The notes under the pieces: model-generated
Told to the model about the DNA's origin: nothing
Seen by the model: the letters and a program-made list of their open reading frames with translations, nothing else
The model's database searches: none
IMG/VR virus record: IMGVR_UViG_3300020577_013140
Span: 1 to 20,380 of that record
Length of the DNA stretch: 20,380 bases
From: a virus
Lineage: Duplodnaviria > Heunggongvirae > Uroviricota > Caudoviricetes
Reading direction: 5' to 3' (one strand)
Position numbers and translations under genes: made by a program
Shown here: positions 1-15,382 of the stretch, in pieces
How the letters are laid out: every line of letters begins with the position of its first letter
How positions within the stretch are numbered: the stretch's first letter is position 1

Positions 1-764
1 AGAATAACCGGATCACCATAACTCACCACGGTGCCTTTCTTTACGACACCGTTCGGCTCAATTGTCGCAAGCTGGTTGTTCAGAAATCGGTTGGCAAAAA
101 TGGCGACATACTTATTCTTACCGATCTCAACACCCATTCGCGCTTCCATGCGCATACGGAAAATCTGCTCGGCTTCGAGCTTCTTTGCACCAGACTCCGT
201 AACCACAAAGGCGTCCTCGAAGTTGGATGAACGATACGGCATCACAGCGGTACGGAGATTTGTGCCCATCGCCATCACACCGTTCTCGTCTGTATAGTTT
301 GACACCGCCAACAGCTCCCCTTTTTTCACCTTATCCCCTACTTTGACTTTCGGTGTGTAATGGATAGAGGTCTTTTGCCCAAGGTTATGGTTGTGGTAGA
401 GGTCAAAGGTTTTTACACCATCTGACGTCTTGATCTTGATTTCGTGATCCGTCACCTCTGTAACGGTACCATCGACGTCGCTCTTCTGGCTCAAGTAGTT
501 CTGCCCGAGCTGCTTAACAAAGGAGTCGTCAGCCATGCGAGCCACACTCTGAACCAACGGTGGTTGGCGATGCACGAGGGAGATGGCTTGCAGTGTGGCT
601 TTAGAACCGATCAAGATACGACCGCCCGACACACCACCAAGGCCAGTAACCAGGTTAGCCGGGTAAGAGAAGAAGTCTTTGGTGGACGCAAACTCATAGT
701 CGTGCCCTTCATCGGCAGGAGTTTTCTTCAAGCGTCCTTTATCGAGGACCGTAATTTCGCTCAT
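1..764 (-). CDS. rpoB: DNA-directed RNA polymerase beta subunit, middle/C-terminal fragment (split RpoB-like; runs off the window at position 1)
   Basis: Manual translation from ATG 764 (in-frame TAG upstream at 782-780), open to the window edge, 254 codons: MSEITVLDKG...SGGRILIGSKATLQAISLVHRQPPLVQS...VKVGDKVKKGELLAVSNYTDENGVMAMGTNLRTAVMPYRSSNFEDAFVVTESG...IEPNGVVRKGTVVSYGDPVI. This is collinear with bacterial RpoB [50 protein letters not shown] and LDESGIVYIGAEV..GDILV. Absent from the ORF track because it has no stop in the window. Confidence 0.92.
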   Translation of the reverse strand, partial: MSEITVLDKGRLKKTPADEGHDYEFASTKDFFSYPANLVTGLGGVSGGRILIGSKATLQAISLVHRQPPLVQSVARMADDSFVKQLGQNYLSQKSDVDGTVTEVTDHEIKIKTSDGVKTFDLYHNHNLGQKTSIHYTPKVKVGDKVKKGELLAVSNYTDENGVMAMGTNLRTAVMPYRSSNFEDAFVVTESGAKKLEAEQIFRMRMEARMGVEIGKNKYVAIFANRFLNNQLATIEPNGVVKKGTVVSYGDPVI

Positions 765-771
765 TTGAGTA

Positions 772-823
772 ATGCTACACTACCGGGTTTCGAATTGCAA
801 TTTCATCTGTACCTGTCTACCAT
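772..823. promoter_or_regulatory. Bidirectional sigma70-like promoter pair sharing one palindromic -35 (TTGCAA, 795-800)
   Basis: AATTGCAATT palindrome at 793-802. Plus strand: TTGCAA-17 nt-TACCAT (818-823). Minus strand: TTGCAA-17 nt-TAGCAT (777-772), predicted +1 about 765, next to ATG 764. Confidence 0.65.
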
Positions 824-833
824 GAAGCTATCT

Positions 834-2630
834 ATGGGGACTCTAATGCGTTCCACGCCAAGCTCAAGACAAAACACTCTGCCGTTCAAGGCCGCAACAG
901 TTGCAGTCGACCTCGACGGCACCTTGGCGAAGCATATATCTGCCAAGAAATTTGATCCAACGCGCATAGGTCCTCCCGTACAAAAGATGATGGACAAGGT
1001 GAAACGTTACCTTGAACGAGGCAAGGATGTGGTACTATTTACGGCTCGCGCCTCGGACCCGAGGAATGTACCTCCTGTGCGTGCCTGGCTGGATCGCCAT
1101 AACCTAAGCAAGGTGAAGATCACAAATCAAAAAACTCCTGACATTGAAGTGATCTACGACGACCGAGCCAAGGGAGTACACAAAAACAAAGGCACGATCA
1201 AAAGTGGTTCTGCTTTCGACAAATTAGCCGCGCTTCCTGGCGTTTCCCTCAAGCCGCACCAACAACGGGTAGTCAATCGTCTTAAGCAACCTGGGACCAC
1301 CGGGCTGCTGGCTCAACATGGGCTTGGTTCGGGCAAAACGCTTTCGTCTATCGCTTCCTGGGACGCCTTGGGGCGCCCACGAACCGCTGTGATCGTACCT
1401 GCAGCATTGCAGGAAAACTACCGTAAAGAGCTGACAAAATGGGTGGGGCAGGTTCCTCCCAACGTCAACATCATGAGCCAACAGCGTGTGGCTCGTCAAG
1501 GTGGCCTTTTAGGGCCTGCTCCAGAGTTGATGATTGTCGATGAACAGCACAAGGCCAGGGAACAAAGCTCGGCTCTACGGGCGGCATTGGCCAACATCAA
1601 GGCTAAAAAAAAGCTTCTATTGACTGGTACGCCAATCTACAACCACCCTCAAGATATTGCCGCAACCGTCAACTTGGCGGCCGGTCGCACCCTTTTACCG
1701 ACAGACCGTGCGTCGTTCAACGAACGATACGTCGCCACCGAGAAAGTTAATCCGCCTCTGTTACAGCGCCTCATGGGTGTACGCCCAGGCACAAAACAGG
1801 TACTCAAAAATCGGGGCGAGCTTGGGCGGATACTAAGGCAGTACGTCGACTATCACCCCAACTCGACTCAAGGCTTCCCTCGTTCATCTGAGGAAACGAT
1901 AAAGGTGCCCATGGGCGGAGCTCAGACCGACATCTACAACGCCATCATGGGCAAGGCTCCTCGCTGGGTGCGTTGGAAAGTGAAAGCCGGGCTACCTCCA
2001 GGTAAAGGTGAGTTCGAGGCTATGCGCGCATTCCTTACTGGAGCGCGTCAGGTTTCCAACACCAACCGCGAGTTCACCCGATCCAAAGAAGAAGCTGCGA
2101 AGATTGAAGCAGCGTTCAAGTTTTTCCAGAATAAGGCTAAGGCGGATCCAAGCTATAAGGCAGTCGTTTACTCGAACTACCTGCGAAGCGGTCTATCACC
2201 TTACAAAGACCGACTAGCGCGAGCAGGCATTCCTTACGGCGAGTTCAGTGGTGACATGGACCGGCGCGCACGTGACGAAATGGTAAGACAATACAACGCA
2301 AATAAGCTGCGTGCCTTGCTGATTAGTTCAGCCGGCGCCGAGGGCCTTGACCTCAAAGGCACCCGACTGATCCAGCTGTTGGAACCTCACTTCAACGAAG
2401 AAAAAGAAAAGCAGATCATTGGACGCGGTATCCGATATGGGTCACACGCCGGCTTGTCGCCTGCCCAACAACATGTGCTCGTGCAACGCTACCTGGCGCA
2501 GCCACAAGGAGGTTGGTTCGACCGACTGTTTGGTAACTCAACAACTAGGGGCGCTGACGAGTACATCCGTAACCTCGCCCTGCAGAAGTCCCAGCTCAAC
2601 AATCAAGTACAGCAACTACTGACGCCTTAA
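834..2630 (+). CDS. HAD-family phosphatase domain fused to SNF2-like (SF2) helicase/ATPase
   Basis: HAD motifs VAVDLDGT, VLFTAR, K, IYDDR, then helicase motifs QHGLGSGKT, IVDEQH, LLLTGTP, LLISSAGAEGLDLKG, QIIGRGIRYGSH. The ORF-track start at 444 lies antisense to the RpoB gene; plausible starts are ATG 822, 834 or 846 (834 fits the promoter). Confidence 0.9.
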   Translation: MGTLMRSTPSSRQNTLPFKAATVAVDLDGTLAKHISAKKFDPTRIGPPVQKMMDKVKRYLERGKDVVLFTARASDPRNVPPVRAWLDRHNLSKVKITNQKTPDIEVIYDDRAKGVHKNKGTIKSGSAFDKLAALPGVSLKPHQQRVVNRLKQPGTTGLLAQHGLGSGKTLSSIASWDALGRPRTAVIVPAALQENYRKELTKWVGQVPPNVNIMSQQRVARQGGLLGPAPELMIVDEQHKAREQSSALRAALANIKAKKKLLLTGTPIYNHPQDIAATVNLAAGRTLLPTDRASFNERYVATEKVNPPLLQRLMGVRPGTKQVLKNRGELGRILRQYVDYHPNSTQGFPRSSEETIKVPMGGAQTDIYNAIMGKAPRWVRWKVKAGLPPGKGEFEAMRAFLTGARQVSNTNREFTRSKEEAAKIEAAFKFFQNKAKADPSYKAVVYSNYLRSGLSPYKDRLARAGIPYGEFSGDMDRRARDEMVRQYNANKLRALLISSAGAEGLDLKGTRLIQLLEPHFNEEKEKQIIGRGIRYGSHAGLSPAQQHVLVQRYLAQPQGGWFDRLFGNSTTRGADEYIRNLALQKSQLNNQVQQLLTP

Positions 2631-8058: not shown

Positions 8059-8086
8059 TTGACAACCCCCCATCCTGTGATACCTT
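8059..8086 (+). promoter_or_regulatory. sigma70-like promoter for the HUH gene
   Basis: TTGACA (8059-8064), 16 nt, TGaTACCTT; predicted +1 about 8093, in-frame GTG at 8098. Confidence 0.7.
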
Positions 8087-8097
8087 GTCTCACTACT

Positions 8098-10341
8098 GTG
8101 GATCGCTTTAATCGTGACATCGTTGAGATCGCCCTCTCCTTGGAAGAAGGAGAAGTGGTTGATTTACACTCGTTTATGACTCGTGCCTTCCCCCACAGGA
8201 AGGTTTCGGATCGCTACAAGCACGGAAATTATCACACGAATGCCGAGGCTATCGTCCTGAGCTCCTGGTCCAATCGCAAGGCCTACATCATGTGTGGAGC
8301 CCCCGGATACGCTGGCGTGCCCTCCTGCTGCCATCAGACCCTCGTCTGTGAGGCCTGCTGCAAGAAGGCTGCAGCACGCATGTACGTCCGCTACCAACAC
8401 GCCTTTGAACAGGCACAGCACTGGTACTCGATCACCTACTCCTTCAAGACGAATATCTTCCTCGACACTGCCACCAAGGAAGAGTTCCTGAACCGCTACA
8501 AGGTGGCAGACGCGTTTATCCGCTCCCTGCGCTCCGCTGGCCTTATCCATGGGGCTGTCGCCGTACGTGAAATATCCATCAATTCCTTTCAGGGCAAGGC
8601 TGTATTCCCTCACACGCACGTCGTCGTCAACTCTGACCGCTCCGACCTTATCAATGAAGACGGTACCTATCACACCGCCATTGCAGAGGAGGCAGCCCGC
8701 ACAGGCGTCTCCATCAAGGTCACACGCATCACCGATTCCTCTGTATTCCTTACTCAGCTCAAATACCCCCTGAAGCCTATCAACATCAAGTCCCTCTACG
8801 AACAGGAGGCAGTCAACTATGATTACAATGAAATAAACCTGGGCTTGGATACTGTCCTGTGCCGCCTCACCGAATACGGCAAGGGTACCCCACGTATTGT
8901 TTATTATGGCAACATGGATGCTCGCTGCAAGGATTACATGGGAGAGGACATGAACCAGCAGAAGAGGGCAAAGCGCGCCCTGGCTCGGGCACAGGTCGCT
9001 CCTCAACAAACTAAAGAATTGAATTCTGCCTCTGCCCCCACTAAAATGGTCACAGTGCAGCTAGACCCTGCAACTACGACTATTATGCCCTATGCTCCTC
9101 AACCGGTGATGCCTCCCCAGACCCAGGCACCGCAGAAAAAGAAGAACTTCTGGGGGCCTCTCGCTCTCGGTGTGGGTGCCGGCATTGCAGGTCTCGGTGC
9201 ATACGACCAGTTCGCCAATCATGGGCGGGCTACCAGTGCGGTCCTGAATAGCCTCAAGAGATACTTCCCTTCCAGTGCACAATCGAGCGTAATGCCTCCT
9301 CCAGTCGCTCGTAACCCTGTTCCCCTTGGTCCTGCCCGCACCGAGGCCGCTGTCATCGCAGACATGACCGCAGGACGCGTAGGTGGTCACTTTAATGATG
9401 CTGGTCGTAATGCCTTGCCTGATTGGCTGCGTCTGCAACGTGATGTGGCCAAGGACACCACCTTCGCTGGTATTCCGGGACACGCTGTTTCCACTGGTCC
9501 TTCGCCTGTGGCTCGAGTTGCTTCTGACCCTCGCTTACCTCGTATATTTACTTCCCCTGAGGGTCAGGCGGCCTATCGTGCCTTGTCTTCACAGCAACCT
9601 GACACTGGAGCTGCCCTCGGTACGTCTGACCTTTTGTCGAATGTTATTCCCACTGGTGCGGCAGTCGCTGACATCGGCGTATTTGGTGTTAATGCTTCAG
9701 GAGGACTATCCGGGTTGCTGAGCAAGATTCTTCCCAAGGTAGGTATTACTTCTCCCAAGGTGCTTGGTCCGCTGTCTCGTATTTCCTCCTTTGCTTCCCG
9801 GCCTATATTCGGTGGTCCTAGTGCGGCCGGTTCCATTACGCGGGCCACCACGCCTATCCTTGGTGGTGCGATGGGTTATTCCGTTGGCTCCAACCCGCTG
9901 AACGTTGAAGCCTACATGGATGCCTTCAAGGATTTGCCTCCTGAACGTGCTGCCTTGGCTTCTCGTTTATTTGGCACGCTCGGCGGTTCAGCGATCGCCC
10001 GGCGCTCTCCTTTTCTTGGAAGTTCTCTTGTAGCAGGCGCAGCAGGACTCGTAGGGCGTGCTAGCTCGCAGATAGAAGACATGACCGGCTCTGTGGCTGA
10101 GCGTGGGGCCTTTGGTGATGTGCTGAACCGTTTGTATCGAGGTGCTCGTGCTGGTAACCCTGAGTACCGCATTGCGTTGGAAAATGCATTGAAATACGTC
10201 GACAGTAATCCACAGCTCGCCGGAGCCATTGCTGGTAAAGAACAACCCTGGTACCGCTCTTGGCCTGTTACGGAACAGATGGGTGACTCTCCGGCGCTTC
10301 AAAGTTTGATTAACAAATCCAGACAGGCTATCCTTGAGTGA
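8098..10341 (+). CDS. Rolling-circle Rep-type HUH endonuclease fused in frame to a Pro/Gly/Ala-rich probable virion protein
   Basis: Zn-knuckle C(8293)...CCHQTLVCEAC, motif I-like YSITYS (about 8425-8442), HUH PHTHVVV (8608-), motif III KYPLK (Tyr 8764). After about 9050 the sequence is low-complexity, with a hydrophobic GPLALGVGAGIAGLGAYD helix. No stop between the two parts. Confidence 0.75.
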   Translation: MDRFNRDIVEIALSLEEGEVVDLHSFMTRAFPHRKVSDRYKHGNYHTNAEAIVLSSWSNRKAYIMCGAPGYAGVPSCCHQTLVCEACCKKAAARMYVRYQHAFEQAQHWYSITYSFKTNIFLDTATKEEFLNRYKVADAFIRSLRSAGLIHGAVAVREISINSFQGKAVFPHTHVVVNSDRSDLINEDGTYHTAIAEEAARTGVSIKVTRITDSSVFLTQLKYPLKPINIKSLYEQEAVNYDYNEINLGLDTVLCRLTEYGKGTPRIVYYGNMDARCKDYMGEDMNQQKRAKRALARAQVAPQQTKELNSASAPTKMVTVQLDPATTTIMPYAPQPVMPPQTQAPQKKKNFWGPLALGVGAGIAGLGAYDQFANHGRATSAVLNSLKRYFPSSAQSSVMPPPVARNPVPLGPARTEAAVIADMTAGRVGGHFNDAGRNALPDWLRLQRDVAKDTTFAGIPGHAVSTGPSPVARVASDPRLPRIFTSPEGQAAYRALSSQQPDTGAALGTSDLLSNVIPTGAAVADIGVFGVNASGGLSGLLSKILPKVGITSPKVLGPLSRISSFASRPIFGGPSAAGSITRATTPILGGAMGYSVGSNPLNVEAYMDAFKDLPPERAALASRLFGTLGGSAIARRSPFLGSSLVAGAAGLVGRASSQIEDMTGSVAERGAFGDVLNRLYRGARAGNPEYRIALENALKYVDSNPQLAGAIAGKEQPWYRSWPVTEQMGDSPALQSLINKSRQAILE
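9019..9047 (+). promoter_or_regulatory. Internal near-consensus sigma70 promoter inside the HUH fusion ORF
   Basis: TTGAAT (9019-9024), 17 nt, TAAAAT (9042-9047); predicted +1 about 9054, with in-frame GTG 9055 and ATG 9085. Confidence 0.65.
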
Positions 10342-10342
10342 T

Positions 10343-11194
10343 ATGACGACAGATCCGTACACACAATTTAAGCAGGCCTTTCTTGACCAGGCGTTATTGA
10401 AAGGCTACGACGCTGACTTCCTTGAAGGGTTCTTCAAGCGGGCCGAGGACGAATACTCTCAATGGGAGACCTTGGTTGAGTTGACCTACAAGGGCGACAC
10501 TGCTCTTTGCAAGCAGGCCTACGCCGAGTTGGCTGCTTCCTTGGGTACTTATGGAGTAAGCGATAAGATGGCTGAAGCTTCCGGCATGGGGCCTGAGATC
10601 CTTGGGTTGCTCACCCGCCTTGGCGGCAGCACTGCTGGCATGTTTGGTCAATCAGGTGGGGCAGGACTTGGTGGTGCTCTGGTCGGGGGTGGAGGCGGTT
10701 TATTGATCGGGCTCATTCTCTCCCAGATGCTCGGTATCCCTCTTTCCACTGGTATGTTGCTCGGGGCCCTTGGTGGTGCTGGTCTCGGATATGGTGCCGC
10801 AGGTACCCCGGCAGGACAACACTCCATCTTTGGTTCCCCAGATGCTCCGCCGCCGAAGCTACCGAATGCCTCTCAACCTGCACCAGCACCGAATCATTCG
10901 GCTGCCAATGACGTTGCGGCCAATCAGGCGGCTTCAAACCAGGCTGTGGCTGGTGTGTCCCCCAAGCCCCAAGCTCCGTTGCCTGGGCCTGGTGGGCAAC
11001 CCGTCGCTCCTCCTGAGCAAATGGGGCCTCCACCAGCACCAGAAAAACTAGGCCCGCCGCCAGCTCCAACACCTGCTCCTGCTCCGAATGCCGGCGCCCC
11101 TCAGCCGCTCCGACCAGGCACACAATCTCCCGGTATTCCACCAATCGGTGCACCGGCTCTACCCACACCGCCAAAACCACCAGGAGCCAAGTAA
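10343..11194 (+). CDS. Glycine-zipper membrane-type protein with Pro-rich tail; probable virion protein
   Basis: ATG 1 nt after the upstream TGA; GGAGLGGALVGGGGGLLIGLIL..GMLLGALGGAGLGYG; four K-x-A motifs in the N-terminal 80 aa. Confidence 0.8.
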   Translation: MTTDPYTQFKQAFLDQALLKGYDADFLEGFFKRAEDEYSQWETLVELTYKGDTALCKQAYAELAASLGTYGVSDKMAEASGMGPEILGLLTRLGGSTAGMFGQSGGAGLGGALVGGGGGLLIGLILSQMLGIPLSTGMLLGALGGAGLGYGAAGTPAGQHSIFGSPDAPPPKLPNASQPAPAPNHSAANDVAANQAASNQAVAGVSPKPQAPLPGPGGQPVAPPEQMGPPPAPEKLGPPPAPTPAPAPNAGAPQPLRPGTQSPGIPPIGAPALPTPPKPPGAK

Positions 11195-11195
11195 T

Positions 11196-12074
11196 ATGAA
11201 CGATCTTTATATCGAGGAACTCATTGATGGGCTACAGGCCGCGTTATCCAAACGTGGCAACGATCTTTTCAGTAGCTCTCCAAACGGAGCCTCATTATTC
11301 CCTTCCATGACCTCACAGGCAAAGTGGAAATTCGCCAAAGGCGAGAACTTTCTACGATTGCACGACGGGCAGAAGGTCTACGCCTTTAAGCTGCCCACAG
11401 GCCTTTCTCACACTGAGGACTTTGCCGCTCATCGAGAAGCGGACCTGGACCCCAGTGTTTTTGCCGAAGGGGCCACACAGCAAGGACTGGCGCAAGTACA
11501 TCGAGCTGACCCAGGATCCATTTACTTTACCTTGCAGGAAGGACGGGATAACCCAACCTTCACGTTAAAGCACACCGGAGAAAGTAACTGGCGAGGTACT
11601 CCAAAGAAACGCAAGGCGAAGGAACTGGTGGTACCAAACATCGATCATGCTGCCATGGCCGAAGGGATCAAGGCGGCTTTCGACGGGAAGAAAGAACCTG
11701 TTAAAAAGGCTGACTTCGCCCCTTTTAGTTTCGCTGCAGGTCCCGGCGCCCATGCCCTGCAGCGTCTTGCTTTTTCCCCGGGCGAGTTAGTGCATCGACT
11801 AGGTGATGGTGGAAAAAACAATTTCCTTGGTGCCCTCGGTGCCGCCGGACTTGGTGCCGGCGCTGGTGCGGCTTACCATCTTGGAAAGCGTACCTTGTAC
11901 AACACAGAGGACGAGAACCAAATGGAAGATGAACAAGGGAGCAAACCACTACTGAGGCGCATGCTGACTCCTGCGCTTGCCGCTGGTGTAATCGGCGGAG
12001 CACAATCCTCGTTGTTTGACAACCAGTACAACTTGCTCGAGAGCGGAGCAGGGATGGGCACGAAAGTATTTTAA
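11196..12074 (+). CDS. Glycine-zipper protein; probable virion protein
   Basis: ATG 1 nt after TAA; ELIDGLQAALSKRG leader; FLGALGAAGLGAGAGAAYHLGKR and ALAAGVIGGA segments. Confidence 0.8.
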   Translation: MNDLYIEELIDGLQAALSKRGNDLFSSSPNGASLFPSMTSQAKWKFAKGENFLRLHDGQKVYAFKLPTGLSHTEDFAAHREADLDPSVFAEGATQQGLAQVHRADPGSIYFTLQEGRDNPTFTLKHTGESNWRGTPKKRKAKELVVPNIDHAAMAEGIKAAFDGKKEPVKKADFAPFSFAAGPGAHALQRLAFSPGELVHRLGDGGKNNFLGALGAAGLGAGAGAAYHLGKRTLYNTEDENQMEDEQGSKPLLRRMLTPALAAGVIGGAQSSLFDNQYNLLESGAGMGTKVF

Positions 12075-12457
12075 TGAGTACGACAATCCTCAGCAAATTG
12101 CGCTCATTGCGTGTCGGACGCCCTCAACAACCTGCTGAGGCGCCACCAGTGCCGTCCTTTGATGGCCCTGCCCTGCGTAGTGCGATCAACCGCGATAGTA
12201 GTCTCTCAAAGGCCGAGCAGTCTGAGTTACATGGCTGGCTGGATAATCCAGAGACAATCAAGGGGTTGCAAAGCGGGGGCATCGGTGCAGCTCTGAGCTA
12301 TATGGTCGCCAAGTTCCTCAAACTCAAGCCACAAACCCAACTTTTGTTATCGATTGCGGGCTTCGGAATTGGTAAGATCATCTACGACTACAAGACCAAC
12401 CCAAAGAAGTTTAGCTCCTATAACGAGCAGTTACGAATGTATGAAATCCACAACTGA
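12074..12457 (+). CDS. Small protein with two hydrophobic Gly-containing helices
   Basis: TAATG overlap; GGIGAALSYMVAKF and LLLSIAGFGIGKIIYDYK. Confidence 0.8.
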   Translation: MSTTILSKLRSLRVGRPQQPAEAPPVPSFDGPALRSAINRDSSLSKAEQSELHGWLDNPETIKGLQSGGIGAALSYMVAKFLKLKPQTQLLLSIAGFGIGKIIYDYKTNPKKFSSYNEQLRMYEIHN

Positions 12458-12836
12458 TTTGTTGCCGGCGGAAGCACTGGCCTCTCATCTCAAGTGCGCC
12501 CTGGCGCTAAACCTCGGCAAGGCCGGGCACAGCCTGTATGAGCTGGAAGAGGCGTTGGCCGCCAAAGACACTGAAAAGACCGCCAAGCTGCTGAAGGCTG
12601 CAGGCGACTCTCCGCTCTCGTCGTTGAAATCCCTGTTTGACGTAGCCAGCGGAGGGCTGATGATCGGCGCAGGCACCGCGGCAGCTGCTGGCGGCGTCGG
12701 TGCTGCCGGCCTCTACGGGGCTTACAAGGGGCTACAGGACTCTAAGAAAAGAATCGATGACGCAAACGCCGTTCGTCAACGTATGGATATTGCGCGTCGA
12801 GAGCTCGAAACAGAGCTGGCCGGGCACGCACGCTAA
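12441..12836 (+). CDS. Gly/Ala-zipper protein with C-terminal coiled coil
   Basis: Likely start ATG 12441; EKTAKLLKAAG, GLMIGAGTAAAAGGVGAAGLYGAYKG, then a heptad-like tail. Confidence 0.8.
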   Translation: MKSTTDLLPAEALASHLKCALALNLGKAGHSLYELEEALAAKDTEKTAKLLKAAGDSPLSSLKSLFDVASGGLMIGAGTAAAAGGVGAAGLYGAYKGLQDSKKRIDDANAVRQRMDIARRELETELAGHAR

Positions 12837-12841
12837 GAATT

Positions 12842-13186
12842 ATGAATCGCGAGGCATTTAGCGATCTTTCTGACTTGTCATCCAGGGACGTTCCACCGGA
12901 GCGTGATTTGGAGGCCGAGCTGTTTAATAGACGGTCCATCAAGGACATGGTCACCAACATGGAAAAAGAGTTGGGGCTGTCTCCTGGGAAAAAGGCAAAG
13001 GAAGTAAGACGCCACGTCGACATCCTTGCTCCCGGGCGAGAAGAGGACGGGCAAAAGCTTTCTCGTATCTTGAATGACGACAAGACGTACCGGATTATCA
13101 TGTGGAAAGACACCTGGACTGTACACGGTGACTTCCGCGTGTTTCTAATTTATGAAGAGTTTGTCGACGACAAAAAGGCAAAGTAA
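12842..13186 (+). CDS. Hypothetical protein (114 aa)
   Basis: Tightly spaced in the operon; charged, with a beta-rich C-terminus (YRIIMWKDTWTVHGDFRVFLIYEE). Confidence 0.8.
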   Translation: MNREAFSDLSDLSSRDVPPERDLEAELFNRRSIKDMVTNMEKELGLSPGKKAKEVRRHVDILAPGREEDGQKLSRILNDDKTYRIIMWKDTWTVHGDFRVFLIYEEFVDDKKAK

Positions 13187-14040
13187 TGAACACCAAACAA
13201 TCTAACTGGGCCGGCACTCTAGGTGCTTCGGCCGCCGTCGGCAGCGGAACCTTTGCCCTCGGCGCACTCATCCAAGAAGTCATGCGTCAGCGCGATGCTA
13301 ACGCCCAACGCAACCGGCAGCAACTGCCAGACAACGCTCTGGTAATTGACCTGCCGCGTAGAGCGGAGAAGAAAGCAGCCGACTTGTCTGCTCCTTTCCT
13401 CAAACAGGCAGACGGGATGCTCTCAACCGCCTTGGCACTGCTAGCTGGTGCGCCTGCCGGGTACCTCGGCACAAAGGCACTTTACGACGGAGTCAAAAAG
13501 AAGCAAACGGACCGCGAAATCGGTGACGCTAACTTGAAGTACATGCAGACGCTGCAAGCACTTCAACAAAAGACCGCCGCGCTTTCTTTGCCGTACGTTG
13601 AACAGTTTTGCAAGGCTGCGGCTGAGAACCTGGTCAAGGACGCCGGACTGGAAAAGGTATTGCCGTGGCTGGCTACGCAAGGAGCAAAAATCCCAGGTGC
13701 TGCGCGTACCGGTCAATGGGTGACCAGCCATGCTCCACAACTAAAGCGATCACTGCCTGCCCTCGCCGGCGGAACCGCTGCTGGTGTTGCCGCCGACGAC
13801 TTTGGTGCGTTCGACTGGCTTAAAAGCAACCCAGCCACCCCAGGACCTGGAACTTTTGGTGCGATTAAAGATGGCGCAAAAGACGCGTGGCTCACGATGG
13901 CTGTCCTTTCCGCCTTAGGTGGAGCTGGTGCCATGGTGCATGCCAACAACAAGAAGACCAACCGGGAAAACTCTGGCCCTCCTTCTGCTGTCGCGTTGAA
14001 CTACGAGGATATTCCTCCTGCCGCTGCGTTGCAGCACTAA
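13186..14040 (+). CDS. Multi-Gly/Ala-zipper protein; probable virion protein
   Basis: TAATG overlap; four hydrophobic Gly/Ala segments separated by K-x-A motifs (KKAA, KQAD, KTAA, KAAA, KDAG). Confidence 0.8.
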   Translation: MNTKQSNWAGTLGASAAVGSGTFALGALIQEVMRQRDANAQRNRQQLPDNALVIDLPRRAEKKAADLSAPFLKQADGMLSTALALLAGAPAGYLGTKALYDGVKKKQTDREIGDANLKYMQTLQALQQKTAALSLPYVEQFCKAAAENLVKDAGLEKVLPWLATQGAKIPGAARTGQWVTSHAPQLKRSLPALAGGTAAGVAADDFGAFDWLKSNPATPGPGTFGAIKDGAKDAWLTMAVLSALGGAGAMVHANNKKTNRENSGPPSAVALNYEDIPPAAALQH

Positions 14041-14044
14041 CTGT

Positions 14045-14677
14045 ATGGATCGTGACGCCTTTTACGCAGGTTACGCCGAGGCCCTTTCAAAGAATGCAGG
14101 CATGGTTAATTGGGCTCGGGAAACGTTTGGTCAACCGCTGGTCCAGGGACACATTGATGGTCACTACAGCGGGCTTGGCCGATACAATACCTCGACAGGC
14201 GGCGTTGATCCACATACTCGCAACGCCCTTCAAATGGTGATGGGTAATACCCCTGAGCCTGTGGGTGTAACCGGACACTCCTCCATTCCGTACATGGATA
14301 GCATGCGTAAAGCCATGTACCAGTTTGGCTCCAGCCGCTTTGGGAAAATGCTGGGTGACCGCATAGTTCCTCCGAGTACCGTCAACAACCGGCTTACCTC
14401 TGCGACTGGTGGGGTATTCTCAGCAGGCAATGACGGAGTACAGGTCGACCGATCTAAAATTCCTGGAGCGTTGTTTAACAAAGTCAAGGATTGGGCGAGC
14501 TCACATGGCAACTTGCTAAAAGGCCTAGGCTTCGGAGCTGCGGCTCTTGGGCTTGGCGCCATGGCTTTCAACGGGCGTCAAAGCAACCAGAGACAGGTCG
14601 CTGCACCAGCCGGGCAACAAGCGGCACCGTTCAACGGGCGCGAAGGAAATACCTTTACCAAATACCAGGAAGTCTAG
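14045..14677 (+). CDS. Gly-rich protein with AFYAGYAEALSKNAG leader and C-terminal hydrophobic helix
   Basis: MDRDAFYAGYAEALSKNAG...LLKGLGFGAAALGLGAMAFNGR. Confidence 0.8.
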   Translation: MDRDAFYAGYAEALSKNAGMVNWARETFGQPLVQGHIDGHYSGLGRYNTSTGGVDPHTRNALQMVMGNTPEPVGVTGHSSIPYMDSMRKAMYQFGSSRFGKMLGDRIVPPSTVNNRLTSATGGVFSAGNDGVQVDRSKIPGALFNKVKDWASSHGNLLKGLGFGAAALGLGAMAFNGRQSNQRQVAAPAGQQAAPFNGREGNTFTKYQEV

Positions 14678-14689: not shown

Positions 14690-15382
14690 ATGTCTGCTCA
14701 CGTACCAGGAATGCATGATCTCGAAATCCCTGACCACGCCAGGGCTTTTTTTGATCCCGATAAAACCCGTAAGTGGGTGCAAGAGAGCACGATTCAAGGT
14801 CTCCACGAGCATCTGAACAAACTGGAGACCCCAGACTTCAAGTTGCGTGTAAAAGATCTTCGAGTCCAGGATCCTAACAAACGATTCAACCTGCAGGAGC
14901 AGAAACAGGCGACCCTCGATCGGCATGATTTAACGCAAGCAGTTAAAGGCACAGTTGAACTAGTCAACAAAAAGACCGGCGATGTGGTGGACACCAAGAA
15001 GGATCTCACACTGGTCCATATCCCTTGGGTTACCGACCGTAACACCGTTATCTACAACGGGTCTGAGTACAATATCACCAGCCAGCAACGGTTGAAACCT
15101 GGTGTCTACGCCCGTGTCAAGGATACAGGCGACATCGAGGCACACGTCAACGTAAAGGCCGGAACAGGTAGCGGCGGTAAAGTCATTTTCTTTCCAGACA
15201 AAGCGTTGTTTATCTACCAGGTAGGCACTACCCGTATCAAGCTGTACGGGCTGCTTCATTCCCTTGGCGTATCGGACGCTGAGATGGAAGAAGCCTGGGG
15301 CAGCGAAATCTTTCACAAGAACAAGCTGGCTCATGAAGGGAACGAGCTGGAAAAGATGCACGACAAGCTCTTCACCTATTGA
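14690..15382 (+). CDS. rpoB: DNA-directed RNA polymerase beta subunit, N-terminal fragment (split RpoB-like)
   Basis: LVHIPWVTDRNTVIYNGSEYNITSQQRLKPGVY matches RpoB G.IPLMT..GTFvING.ERVIVSQL.RSPGVy; the preceding ..DLTQAVKGTVELV.. and following KLYGLLHSLG also fit the RpoB N-terminal lobe. Stops after 230 aa. Confidence 0.88.
   Translation: MSAHVPGMHDLEIPDHARAFFDPDKTRKWVQESTIQGLHEHLNKLETPDFKLRVKDLRVQDPNKRFNLQEQKQATLDRHDLTQAVKGTVELVNKKTGDVVDTKKDLTLVHIPWVTDRNTVIYNGSEYNITSQQRLKPGVYARVKDTGDIEAHVNVKAGTGSGGKVIFFPDKALFIYQVGTTRIKLYGLLHSLGVSDAEMEEAWGSEIFHKNKLAHEGNELEKMHDKLFTY

Follow-up and report, generated by a model that had tools for sequence, protein, structure and literature searches.

A Gly-containing leader ending in Lys-x-Ala as a possible head-loading tag on orphan proteins of an Arash-type large phage

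The window analysed here covers nucleotides 1-20,380 of a viral contig of 182,660 nt (IMG/VR record IMGVR_UViG_3300020577_013140; rated 83% complete), and it contains a run of seven orphan genes (10343-14677; B283, C292, D127, E131, F114, G284 and H210) in whose products a Lys-x-Ala (K-x-A) motif recurs and several of which carry a Gly-containing leader. The question raised by this locus is what the motif and the leader are for. The first-pass annotation had proposed a K-x-A-specific protease that removes an acidic and aromatic targeting leader and sets membrane-active segments or enzymes free within the head; the recurrence of motif and leader was partly confirmed in our analysis, and the interpretation appears partly supported. 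We assign a probability of about 0.5 to the reading that the leader would be a scaffold-like loading tag, the counterpart of the capsid-targeting sequence of phage T4, and that K-x-A would be cut by a protease of the type of gp222 of Salmonella phage Arash. Judged by sequence, the products of the seven genes are small, most are of the Gly/Ala-zipper type, and they belong to the structural region of a large phage akin to Arash. Their entire operon is syntenic in four metagenome relatives at 44-61% identity, and neither B283 to H210 nor the proteins encoded beside them gave a Pfam or PHROG family when scanned.

The leader ([FL]xxG[FYL]...KxA in the first-pass annotation) is conserved in every orthologue of B283, C292 and H210. 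Its consensus is [DE]-A-F-x-x-G-[FL]...K-x-A/G, with ∼15-20 residues and an acidic start, and two types can be distinguished by their spacing. Type 1 has three residues from Gly to Lys, as in B283 (D-F-L-E-G-F-F-K-R-A, with FFKRA or FMKEA present in all orthologues), and type 2 has seven, as in H210 (M-[DN]-x-x-A-F-x-x-G-x-x-x-x-L-x-K-x-A) and similarly in C292. All strings quoted for these proteins were found in the genes to which they had been assigned (FKQAF, FFKRAE, LCKQAY and DKMAE in B283; EKTAKLLKAAG in E131; KKAA, FLKQAD, QKTAA, FCKAAA and LVKDAG in G284); among the quoted strings, ALSKRG does not conform to the motif, being K-x-G here and K-Q-A in 2 of 4 orthologues. In the same genome, 95 kb off, there are two further bearers, a 276-aa Gly-zipper protein (YAFADGLLKAA) and a 73-aa protein (YLDSLVKEAA).

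Comparison with a syntenic relative of 225,782 nt indicates that ∼43 kb is absent from the contig. The stretch of the relative that corresponds to this gap was examined gene by gene, its operon being syntenic with that of the window. In the relatives, the leader heads unrelated proteins within the head-morphogenesis operon. In the 225,782-nt relative, paralogues of 311 and 316 aa start with MNERAFFEGLG..LCK.A[SG]P ahead of a Pro-rich linker, and the leader also opens a protein of 143 aa (MKQAFIKGFLKEA) and a Gly-zipper protein of 99 aa (MSQEAFIRGFFKAA). The two paralogues stand in tandem, with an H210-type leader before the Pro-rich linker, and share a conserved Cys-containing C-terminal domain (NINSIACN..GGCTPE). 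Four leaders of the relative were used as independent seeds for anchored BLOSUM scoring against the N-terminal parts of all 205 proteins of the window's genome. H210 ranked first of the 205 for both type-2 seeds (the 311- and 316-aa leaders), in exact register, and for both type-1 seeds B283 ranked first and the 276-aa protein second. A two-sequence hidden Markov model of the leader also placed H210 on top, but with an E-value of 1.6, no better than the reversed-proteome control. In BLASTP, an H210 orthologue matched the 316-aa protein over residues 1-14 only (10/14 identical) with nothing beyond; since the alignment ends there, the leader behaves as a portable tag. Likewise, the leader likeness across unrelated proteins (311, 316, 143, 99, 276 and 73 aa) stops after ∼14-19 residues, and the acidic and aromatic leader proposed at first pass was borne out as a portable unit shared by unrelated proteins. 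Leader-like units also occur as internal repeats in scaffold-like proteins, with three in the relative's 258-aa protein and others in Arash gp223 and gp225.

For K-x-A itself, the seven orphan proteins hold 20 sites against 12.2 expected from composition (1.6-fold; shuffle p 0.012 with whole proteins and 0.004-0.012 with local shuffles), and sites with L, I, F, M or V at -2 number 7 against 2.8 (p 0.02). The remaining proteome has 209 against 215.8, and the form with the hydrophobic residue gives 63 against 61.9 over the whole proteome. Enrichment over a composition background had been suggested as a check at first pass; what we observed is a mild excess in the seven proteins with a flat remainder, which is not convincing alone. 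K-x-A is third of 121 X-x-Y pairs, behind PxP and IxG, and given this rank and the post-hoc choice of the motif, the count by itself is not significant.

These figures would fit a reading in which, for the window proteins, K-x-A is the product of chance and composition, as Ala-rich proteins have Lys and Ala in their amphipathic helices, and the leader is an ordinary conserved helix of membrane-associated proteins with no tie to head maturation. Moreover, the proteome-wide counts show no enrichment and hhalign detected no homology among the seven families: its probability never exceeded 30%, either for the families against each other or against Arash gp213 and gp218-gp228, so that paralogy of the families is supported in the leader only. 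The positions of the sites argue otherwise. In four orthologue sets, K-x-A pairs are kept at the same columns in 0.64 of cases, whereas 73 K/A pairs with a different spacing, taken as controls, reach 0.35, so that retention is nearly twice the control (Mann-Whitney p 4e-4, not a clean probability, since the orthologues are related), and the control value of 35% is that expected from 57% identity. Chance and composition also do not predict that the leaders from the relative's head operon pick H210 and B283 as best among 205 proteins, nor that a further leader-bearing Gly-zipper pair lies 95 kb off in the same genome, and we regard this explanation as improbable.

A protein-by-protein scan of the genome singles out a 363-aa orphan, with 15 K-x-A against 2.4 (Poisson 4.5e-8, z score 8.1); no other X-x-Y pair is as enriched in it. 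All of its 88 homologues, which are 24-86% identical, come from phage contigs of up to 237 kb and always adjoin the large terminase gene, have K-x-A in conserved places, 10-17 per protein (median 14, against 2.7 expected). The sites of the 363-aa protein are evenly spaced, leaving a largest fragment of 40 aa (P 0.0013 under random placement). Its AlphaFold model is folded (predicted local distance difference test score, pLDDT, 89), and each helix has roughly one K-x-A in a fixed place; the model has no match in the PDB, its matches in BFVD are uncharacterised viral proteins only, and the protein has no match among cultured phages. We consider it a candidate core or scaffold-like substrate of the protease, going by sequence. 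The family comprises at least 89 clusters of ∼350 aa in 200-kb-class phages, and the 363-aa protein has a weak match to DUF6582.

In the relative, five head-operon proteins taken together have 58 K-x-A against 19.3 (z 8.8), the strongest excess of any X-x-Y pair in them; counts of K-A, K-xx-A, A-x-K and R-x-A do not depart from expectation, and Table 1 lists counts for single proteins. Three more metagenome relatives have the same excess in their head proteins. Among cultured phages, Arash was identified as a comparator via its helicase, and there gp220, gp222, gp223 and gp225 hold 32 K-x-A against 11.0 (z 6.3, again the top pair), nearly all of them with L, M, I, V or F at -2, whereas no excess is seen in the RNA polymerase, the helicases, the portal and the giant protein of Arash. 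Hence the motif that ends the leader is also enriched in scaffold-like proteins and in the protease, and it also occurs in the capsid N-arm: the relative's capsid protein matches Arash gp226 (E-value 1e-36), and both have a K-E-A at the same N-arm position.

A head protease had been called for by the earlier proposal. One of 463 aa is encoded by the close relative, inside the stretch that is absent from the contig; no such gene was found in the contig itself. The 463-aa protein matches phrog_18299, ‘head maturation protease’, with an E-value of 3.5e-5 (2e-6 for Arash gp222), and it matches gp222 in BLASTP with an E-value of 2e-28; phrog_18299 and phrog_2774 are the sole family matches of the proteases of the relatives and Arash. 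Searches of the contig with Peptidase_S77, S78 and S21, phrog_18299, phrog_2774 and phrog_2522 gave no match (the S21 control also had none), and PHROG and Pfam scans of ∼30 other long contig proteins found no capsid, portal or protease gene; the protease and capsid genes presumably lie in the missing 17%. G284 and the protease as queries had no match in the viral contig collection. As for self-sites in the protease, K-x-A flanks the catalytic domain in the relative and in Arash, and the sites that align with gp222, near residue 28, past the catalytic domain and beyond, are conserved at 28-31% identity and invariant in three closer homologues. Three histidines (H87, H89 and H90) and S141 (in W-S-M-A) are invariant and are candidate catalytic residues chosen by eye only. 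Kinship with S77, S78 or S21 is a lead only, resting on the PHROG label and on an Atlas feature search, which lists clusters of S77, S78 and S80 at 0.91-0.92. The head protease gene of one relative encodes 850 aa and has an intein-like insertion of ∼390 residues within a conserved protease motif, with a Cys start right after GAYEGTG and a His-Asn end before Ser-Asn-Arg. Another encodes a 1041-aa large terminase with an Intein_splicing match, and it seems that more than one packaging or head gene in this lineage is an intein target.

The same observations could reflect docking rather than cutting, the leader being a scaffold-like helix-turn unit that attaches proteins to a common partner, for example scaffold, capsid interior or portal, and K-x-A the signature of a helix that stays uncut. 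The recurrence of leader-like units as internal repeats of scaffold-like proteins (the relative's 258-aa protein, gp223 and gp225) would follow directly, the well folded 363-aa family with its fixed site in nearly each helix would too, and in H210 conservation continues directly past the site with no linker. However, in the 364-aa scaffold-like protein many K-x-A lie in Pro/Thr-rich, non-helical stretches, which a short linear signal fits better than a structural repeat, and those of the 311- and 316-aa proteins lie directly ahead of Pro-rich linkers. Sites that flank the catalytic domain of the protease as far as Arash resemble the self-cleavage sites of T4 gp21 and SPN3US gp245, and the regular spacing in the 363-aa protein fits dicing. 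We consider docking rather unlikely. The exact spacing of Lys and Ala, the enrichment in protease, scaffold and capsid N-arm, the sites lying partly in disordered stretches and the position at the end of a tag, as for the proven cleavage motifs of T4 and phiKZ/SPN3US, together favour the reading of K-x-A as a cut site.

Handling of the leader by the host, as a signal for membrane targeting or insertion in holin-like or superinfection-exclusion proteins, seems improbable to us. The leader is amphipathic, and five operon proteins (A760, which heads the operon, B283, C292, E131 and G284) have uncharged Gly/Ala-zipper segments of 19-63 residues, a membrane-spanning length. But the leader is acidic, bears no likeness to Sec, Tat or lipoprotein signals, and precedes soluble domains and Pro-rich linkers in the 311- and 316-aa proteins; the same module is found in the head operon beside protease, scaffold and capsid genes, and Arash counterparts were detected in particles.

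In the reading that we prefer, loading tag and cut site, the leader would mimic the repeat unit of the scaffold and bring the protein that bears it into the prohead during assembly. A head-maturation protease of the gp222 type, encoded by the lineage itself, would next cut the K-x-A with which the leader ends. Other targets of this protease would be the scaffold-like proteins, diced at their many K-x-A, the N-arm of the capsid protein, which it would trim, and the protease itself. We assume a cut after Ala by analogy with the A|S sites of assemblin. The window proteins would enter the head, and their Gly-zipper parts may act on membranes at ejection; the release of membrane-active segments or enzymes inside the head by cleavage is speculation. 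For the window's own proteins, loading and trimming through leader and K-x-A is predicted at about even odds. Among the proteins detected in purified Arash particles are the Gly-zipper proteins gp213, gp220, gp221 and gp224, as well as the protease gp222 (PMC10585845).

Several points weigh against this reading. The enrichment of K-x-A in the window is weak (1.6-fold), and if taken alone it is lost under multiple-testing correction. D127 has no K-x-A at all, and the C292 leader ends in K-x-G in this genome; as a rule the bare motif is too loose, given that F114 has only basic KKA runs, and the claim that sites come just before a Gly-rich helix applies to G284 (K73 and K232) and only loosely to the others. 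No protease or capsid gene was found in the contig, and the link therefore depends on relatives with 44-57% identity. No Pfam family covers the protease (neither those of the relatives nor gp222 gave a Pfam hit, even at an E-value of up to 10), its AlphaFold model from three sequences has a pLDDT of 32, and searches of its sequence against the PDB gave only spurious repeat matches. The location of K-x-A inside helices of the folded 363-aa protein may also fit a structural role. Finally, the ‘virion’ list of Arash comprises 116 proteins including ribonucleotide reductase and is thus not stringent, and its proteome table gives only coverage and spectrum counts, from which cleavage cannot be read (PMC10585845).

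The class of mechanism is known. As outlined in the cited accounts, the capsid-targeting sequence of T4 is carried by the internal proteins IPI-III and Alt and is removed by the prohead protease gp21 (Mullaney and Black 1996, cited in PMC10052503; review PMC9026906). The present case is similar in having a short N-terminal tag on unrelated small proteins near head genes, and in that the motif at the tag end also marks scaffold, capsid propeptide and protease. It differs in the motif, which in T4 is L/I-x-E, cut after Glu, and here is predicted to be (hydrophobic)-x-K-x-A; in the tag, which is longer, with a conserved Gly and the look of a scaffold repeat; in the bearers, which are Gly-zipper hydrophobic proteins instead of the basic DNA-binding ones of T4; and in the protease, which has no match to Pfam Peptidase_S77.

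The systems of phiKZ gp175 and SPN3US gp245 also belong to large phages with a multisubunit RNA polymerase in the particles, as seen for Arash, and include many head-internal or ejection proteins with N-terminal propeptides and a protease that cuts itself (PMC10052503, PMC5694885, PMC7411985). There the motif is A/S/G-x-E, no sequence relation to the protease considered here is detectable, and the polymerase pieces of the present lineage have no K-x-A excess. A further comparison is the Arash head module gp218-gp226 (OQ632216; PMC10585845), in which gp222 and gp226 are true homologues, the K-x-A excess is the same, the Gly-zipper protein gp221 has an LVDGLLKAAG leader, and RNA polymerase and helicase genes stand beside the head genes. 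Nevertheless, identity is 28-31%, the seven window proteins have no detectable Arash homologues, and in Arash the Gly-zipper genes are interleaved with head genes, whereas here they form a separate operon across the helicase. Correspondingly, Arash structural proteins had no tblastn match in the contig genome, and the window region and G284 had none among cultured phages (megablast, tblastn).

For the assumed cut after Ala, a parallel is the herpesvirus assemblin (MEROPS S21), with release and maturation sites (V/L/I)-x-A|S. Ala at the presumed P1, a small residue next, often a hydrophobic residue 2-4 upstream, and self-processing of protease and scaffold would be common to both. Assemblin differs in that Lys at P3 is not in its rule and that Pfam Peptidase_S21 finds no match in the contig, where its control also found none.

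The claim that K-x-A marks both domain starts of the HAD-SNF2 helicase was borne out: sites are present before the HAD domain and at the HAD/SNF2 junction, and both are conserved in the relative. The Arash helicase gp217, which has no HAD domain, begins just past the junction site. Overall the HAD-SNF2 protein has fewer K-x-A than expected (2 against 4.6), and these two domain-border sites in a K-x-A-poor protein are suggestive only.

Table 1. Positions of leaders, K-x-A sites, genes and related features (window and contig coordinates, unless another locus is named; K-x-A counts are observed against expected)
Feature	Position	Strand	Remarks
B283 type-1 leader unit YDADFLEGFFKRAED	10406..10450	+	residues 22-36
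C292 type-2 leader MNDLYIEELIDGLQAALSKRG	11196..11258	+	N-terminal; K-x-G here, K-Q-A in two orthologues
H210 type-2 leader MDRDAFYAGYAEALSKNAG	14045..14101	+	N-terminal
B283	10343..11194	+	orphan; two leader-like units, Gly-zipper hydrophobic segment at residues 104-166, Pro-rich tail
C292	11196..12074	+	orphan; N-terminal leader, conserved middle domain, two Gly-zipper segments
D127	12074..12457	+	small orphan of the same operon, no K-x-A site
E131	12441..12836	+	small Gly-zipper protein; LLKAAG at nt 12588-12605, 16 residues ahead of hydrophobic segment
F114	12842..13186	+	soluble orphan; starts MNREAF; K-x-A sites are basic KKA runs
G284	13186..14040	+	three hydrophobic Gly-zipper segments, 7 K-x-A sites
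G284 FLKQAD	13396-13413		immediately precedes hydrophobic segment 2
G284 FCKAAAENLVKDAG	13606-13647		
H210	14045..14677	+	orphan; N-terminal leader, C-terminal Gly-rich segment
HAD-SNF2 helicase	444-2630		
PFKAAT	882..899	+	directly before HAD domain; QKMAT in relative
FDKLAA	1215..1232	+	HAD/SNF2 junction; PKTAS in relative
363-aa orphan	173062-174153 (L006:10062-11153)	-	evenly spaced K-x-A, 15 sites
276-aa Gly-zipper protein	106330-107160		leader bearer
73-aa protein	107166-107387		leader bearer
Relative head operon, 457 aa			K-x-A 15 against 5.1
Relative head operon, 463-aa protease			K-x-A 10 against 3.7
Relative head operon, 258 aa			K-x-A 8 against 2.7
Relative head operon, 364-aa scaffold-like protein			K-x-A 21 against 6.2
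Relative, 311/316-aa paralogues	L016:9044-9994 and L016:10001-10936		tandem
One relative, head protease gene, 850 aa	L020:4726-7278	+	intein-like insertion
One relative, large terminase, 1041 aa	L013:12916-16041	-	Intein_splicing match
A760	8059-10341	+	operon head
RNA polymerase beta fragment	14690-15382	+	within the operon; N-terminal fragment
RNA polymerase beta fragment	3-764	-	beside the operon
Paralogue run	175518-182636	-	extends to contig end

The window is organised as a minus-strand block with an RNase H and a lysozyme-like protein, and a tight plus-strand operon that runs from A760 through H210 and continues with the N-terminal fragment of RNA polymerase beta, two small genes, L595 and a giant protein of 3175 aa. 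B283 has four conserved K-x-A sites (K10, K32, K57 and K75). The MNREAF start of F114 equals the first half of a type-2 leader, lacking Gly and K-x-A, and may be a decayed or partial leader. In A760, the N-terminal 320 residues contain a PHTHVVV motif that recalls HUH rolling-circle proteins, and the C-terminal half is Gly/Ala/Pro-rich with one Gly-zipper segment and no K-x-A enrichment (5 against 3.8). The polymerase is of the multisubunit type; in the relative, pieces of it (997 and 617 aa) flank the leader-bearing 311- and 316-aa paralogues. At the far end of the same genome there is a run of paralogues with an N-terminal F-L-N-x-N-T-[LM]-R-[SN]-[YF]-P-[LI] box, which resemble a tail-fibre or baseplate family.

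A wider proposal, which we offer tentatively and with more doubt than confidence, is that a portable ‘A-F-x-x-G-F...K-x-A’ tag would load changeable cargo into the head, namely Gly-zipper channel proteins and perhaps the HAD-SNF2 helicase, and that a Lys-x-Ala protease would trim the tag, cut at domain borders and dice the ∼350-aa core protein to pieces of at most 40 residues. A limited literature search, which is not proof of absence, found no published K-x-A rule for a phage protease, nor a Gly-containing leader on Gly-zipper proteins or this uncatalogued protease branch. If true, the tag and cut-site reading would provide a first functional handle on a seven-gene orphan block and on an orphan family of ∼350 aa, and would define a substrate rule for a lineage of head proteases that has no Pfam family. 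With Arash, a cultured phage of Salmonella Typhimurium, the idea is directly testable, and a portable tag for loading capsids would be of use where foreign proteins are to be packaged into phage heads, as the capsid-targeting sequence of T4 was.

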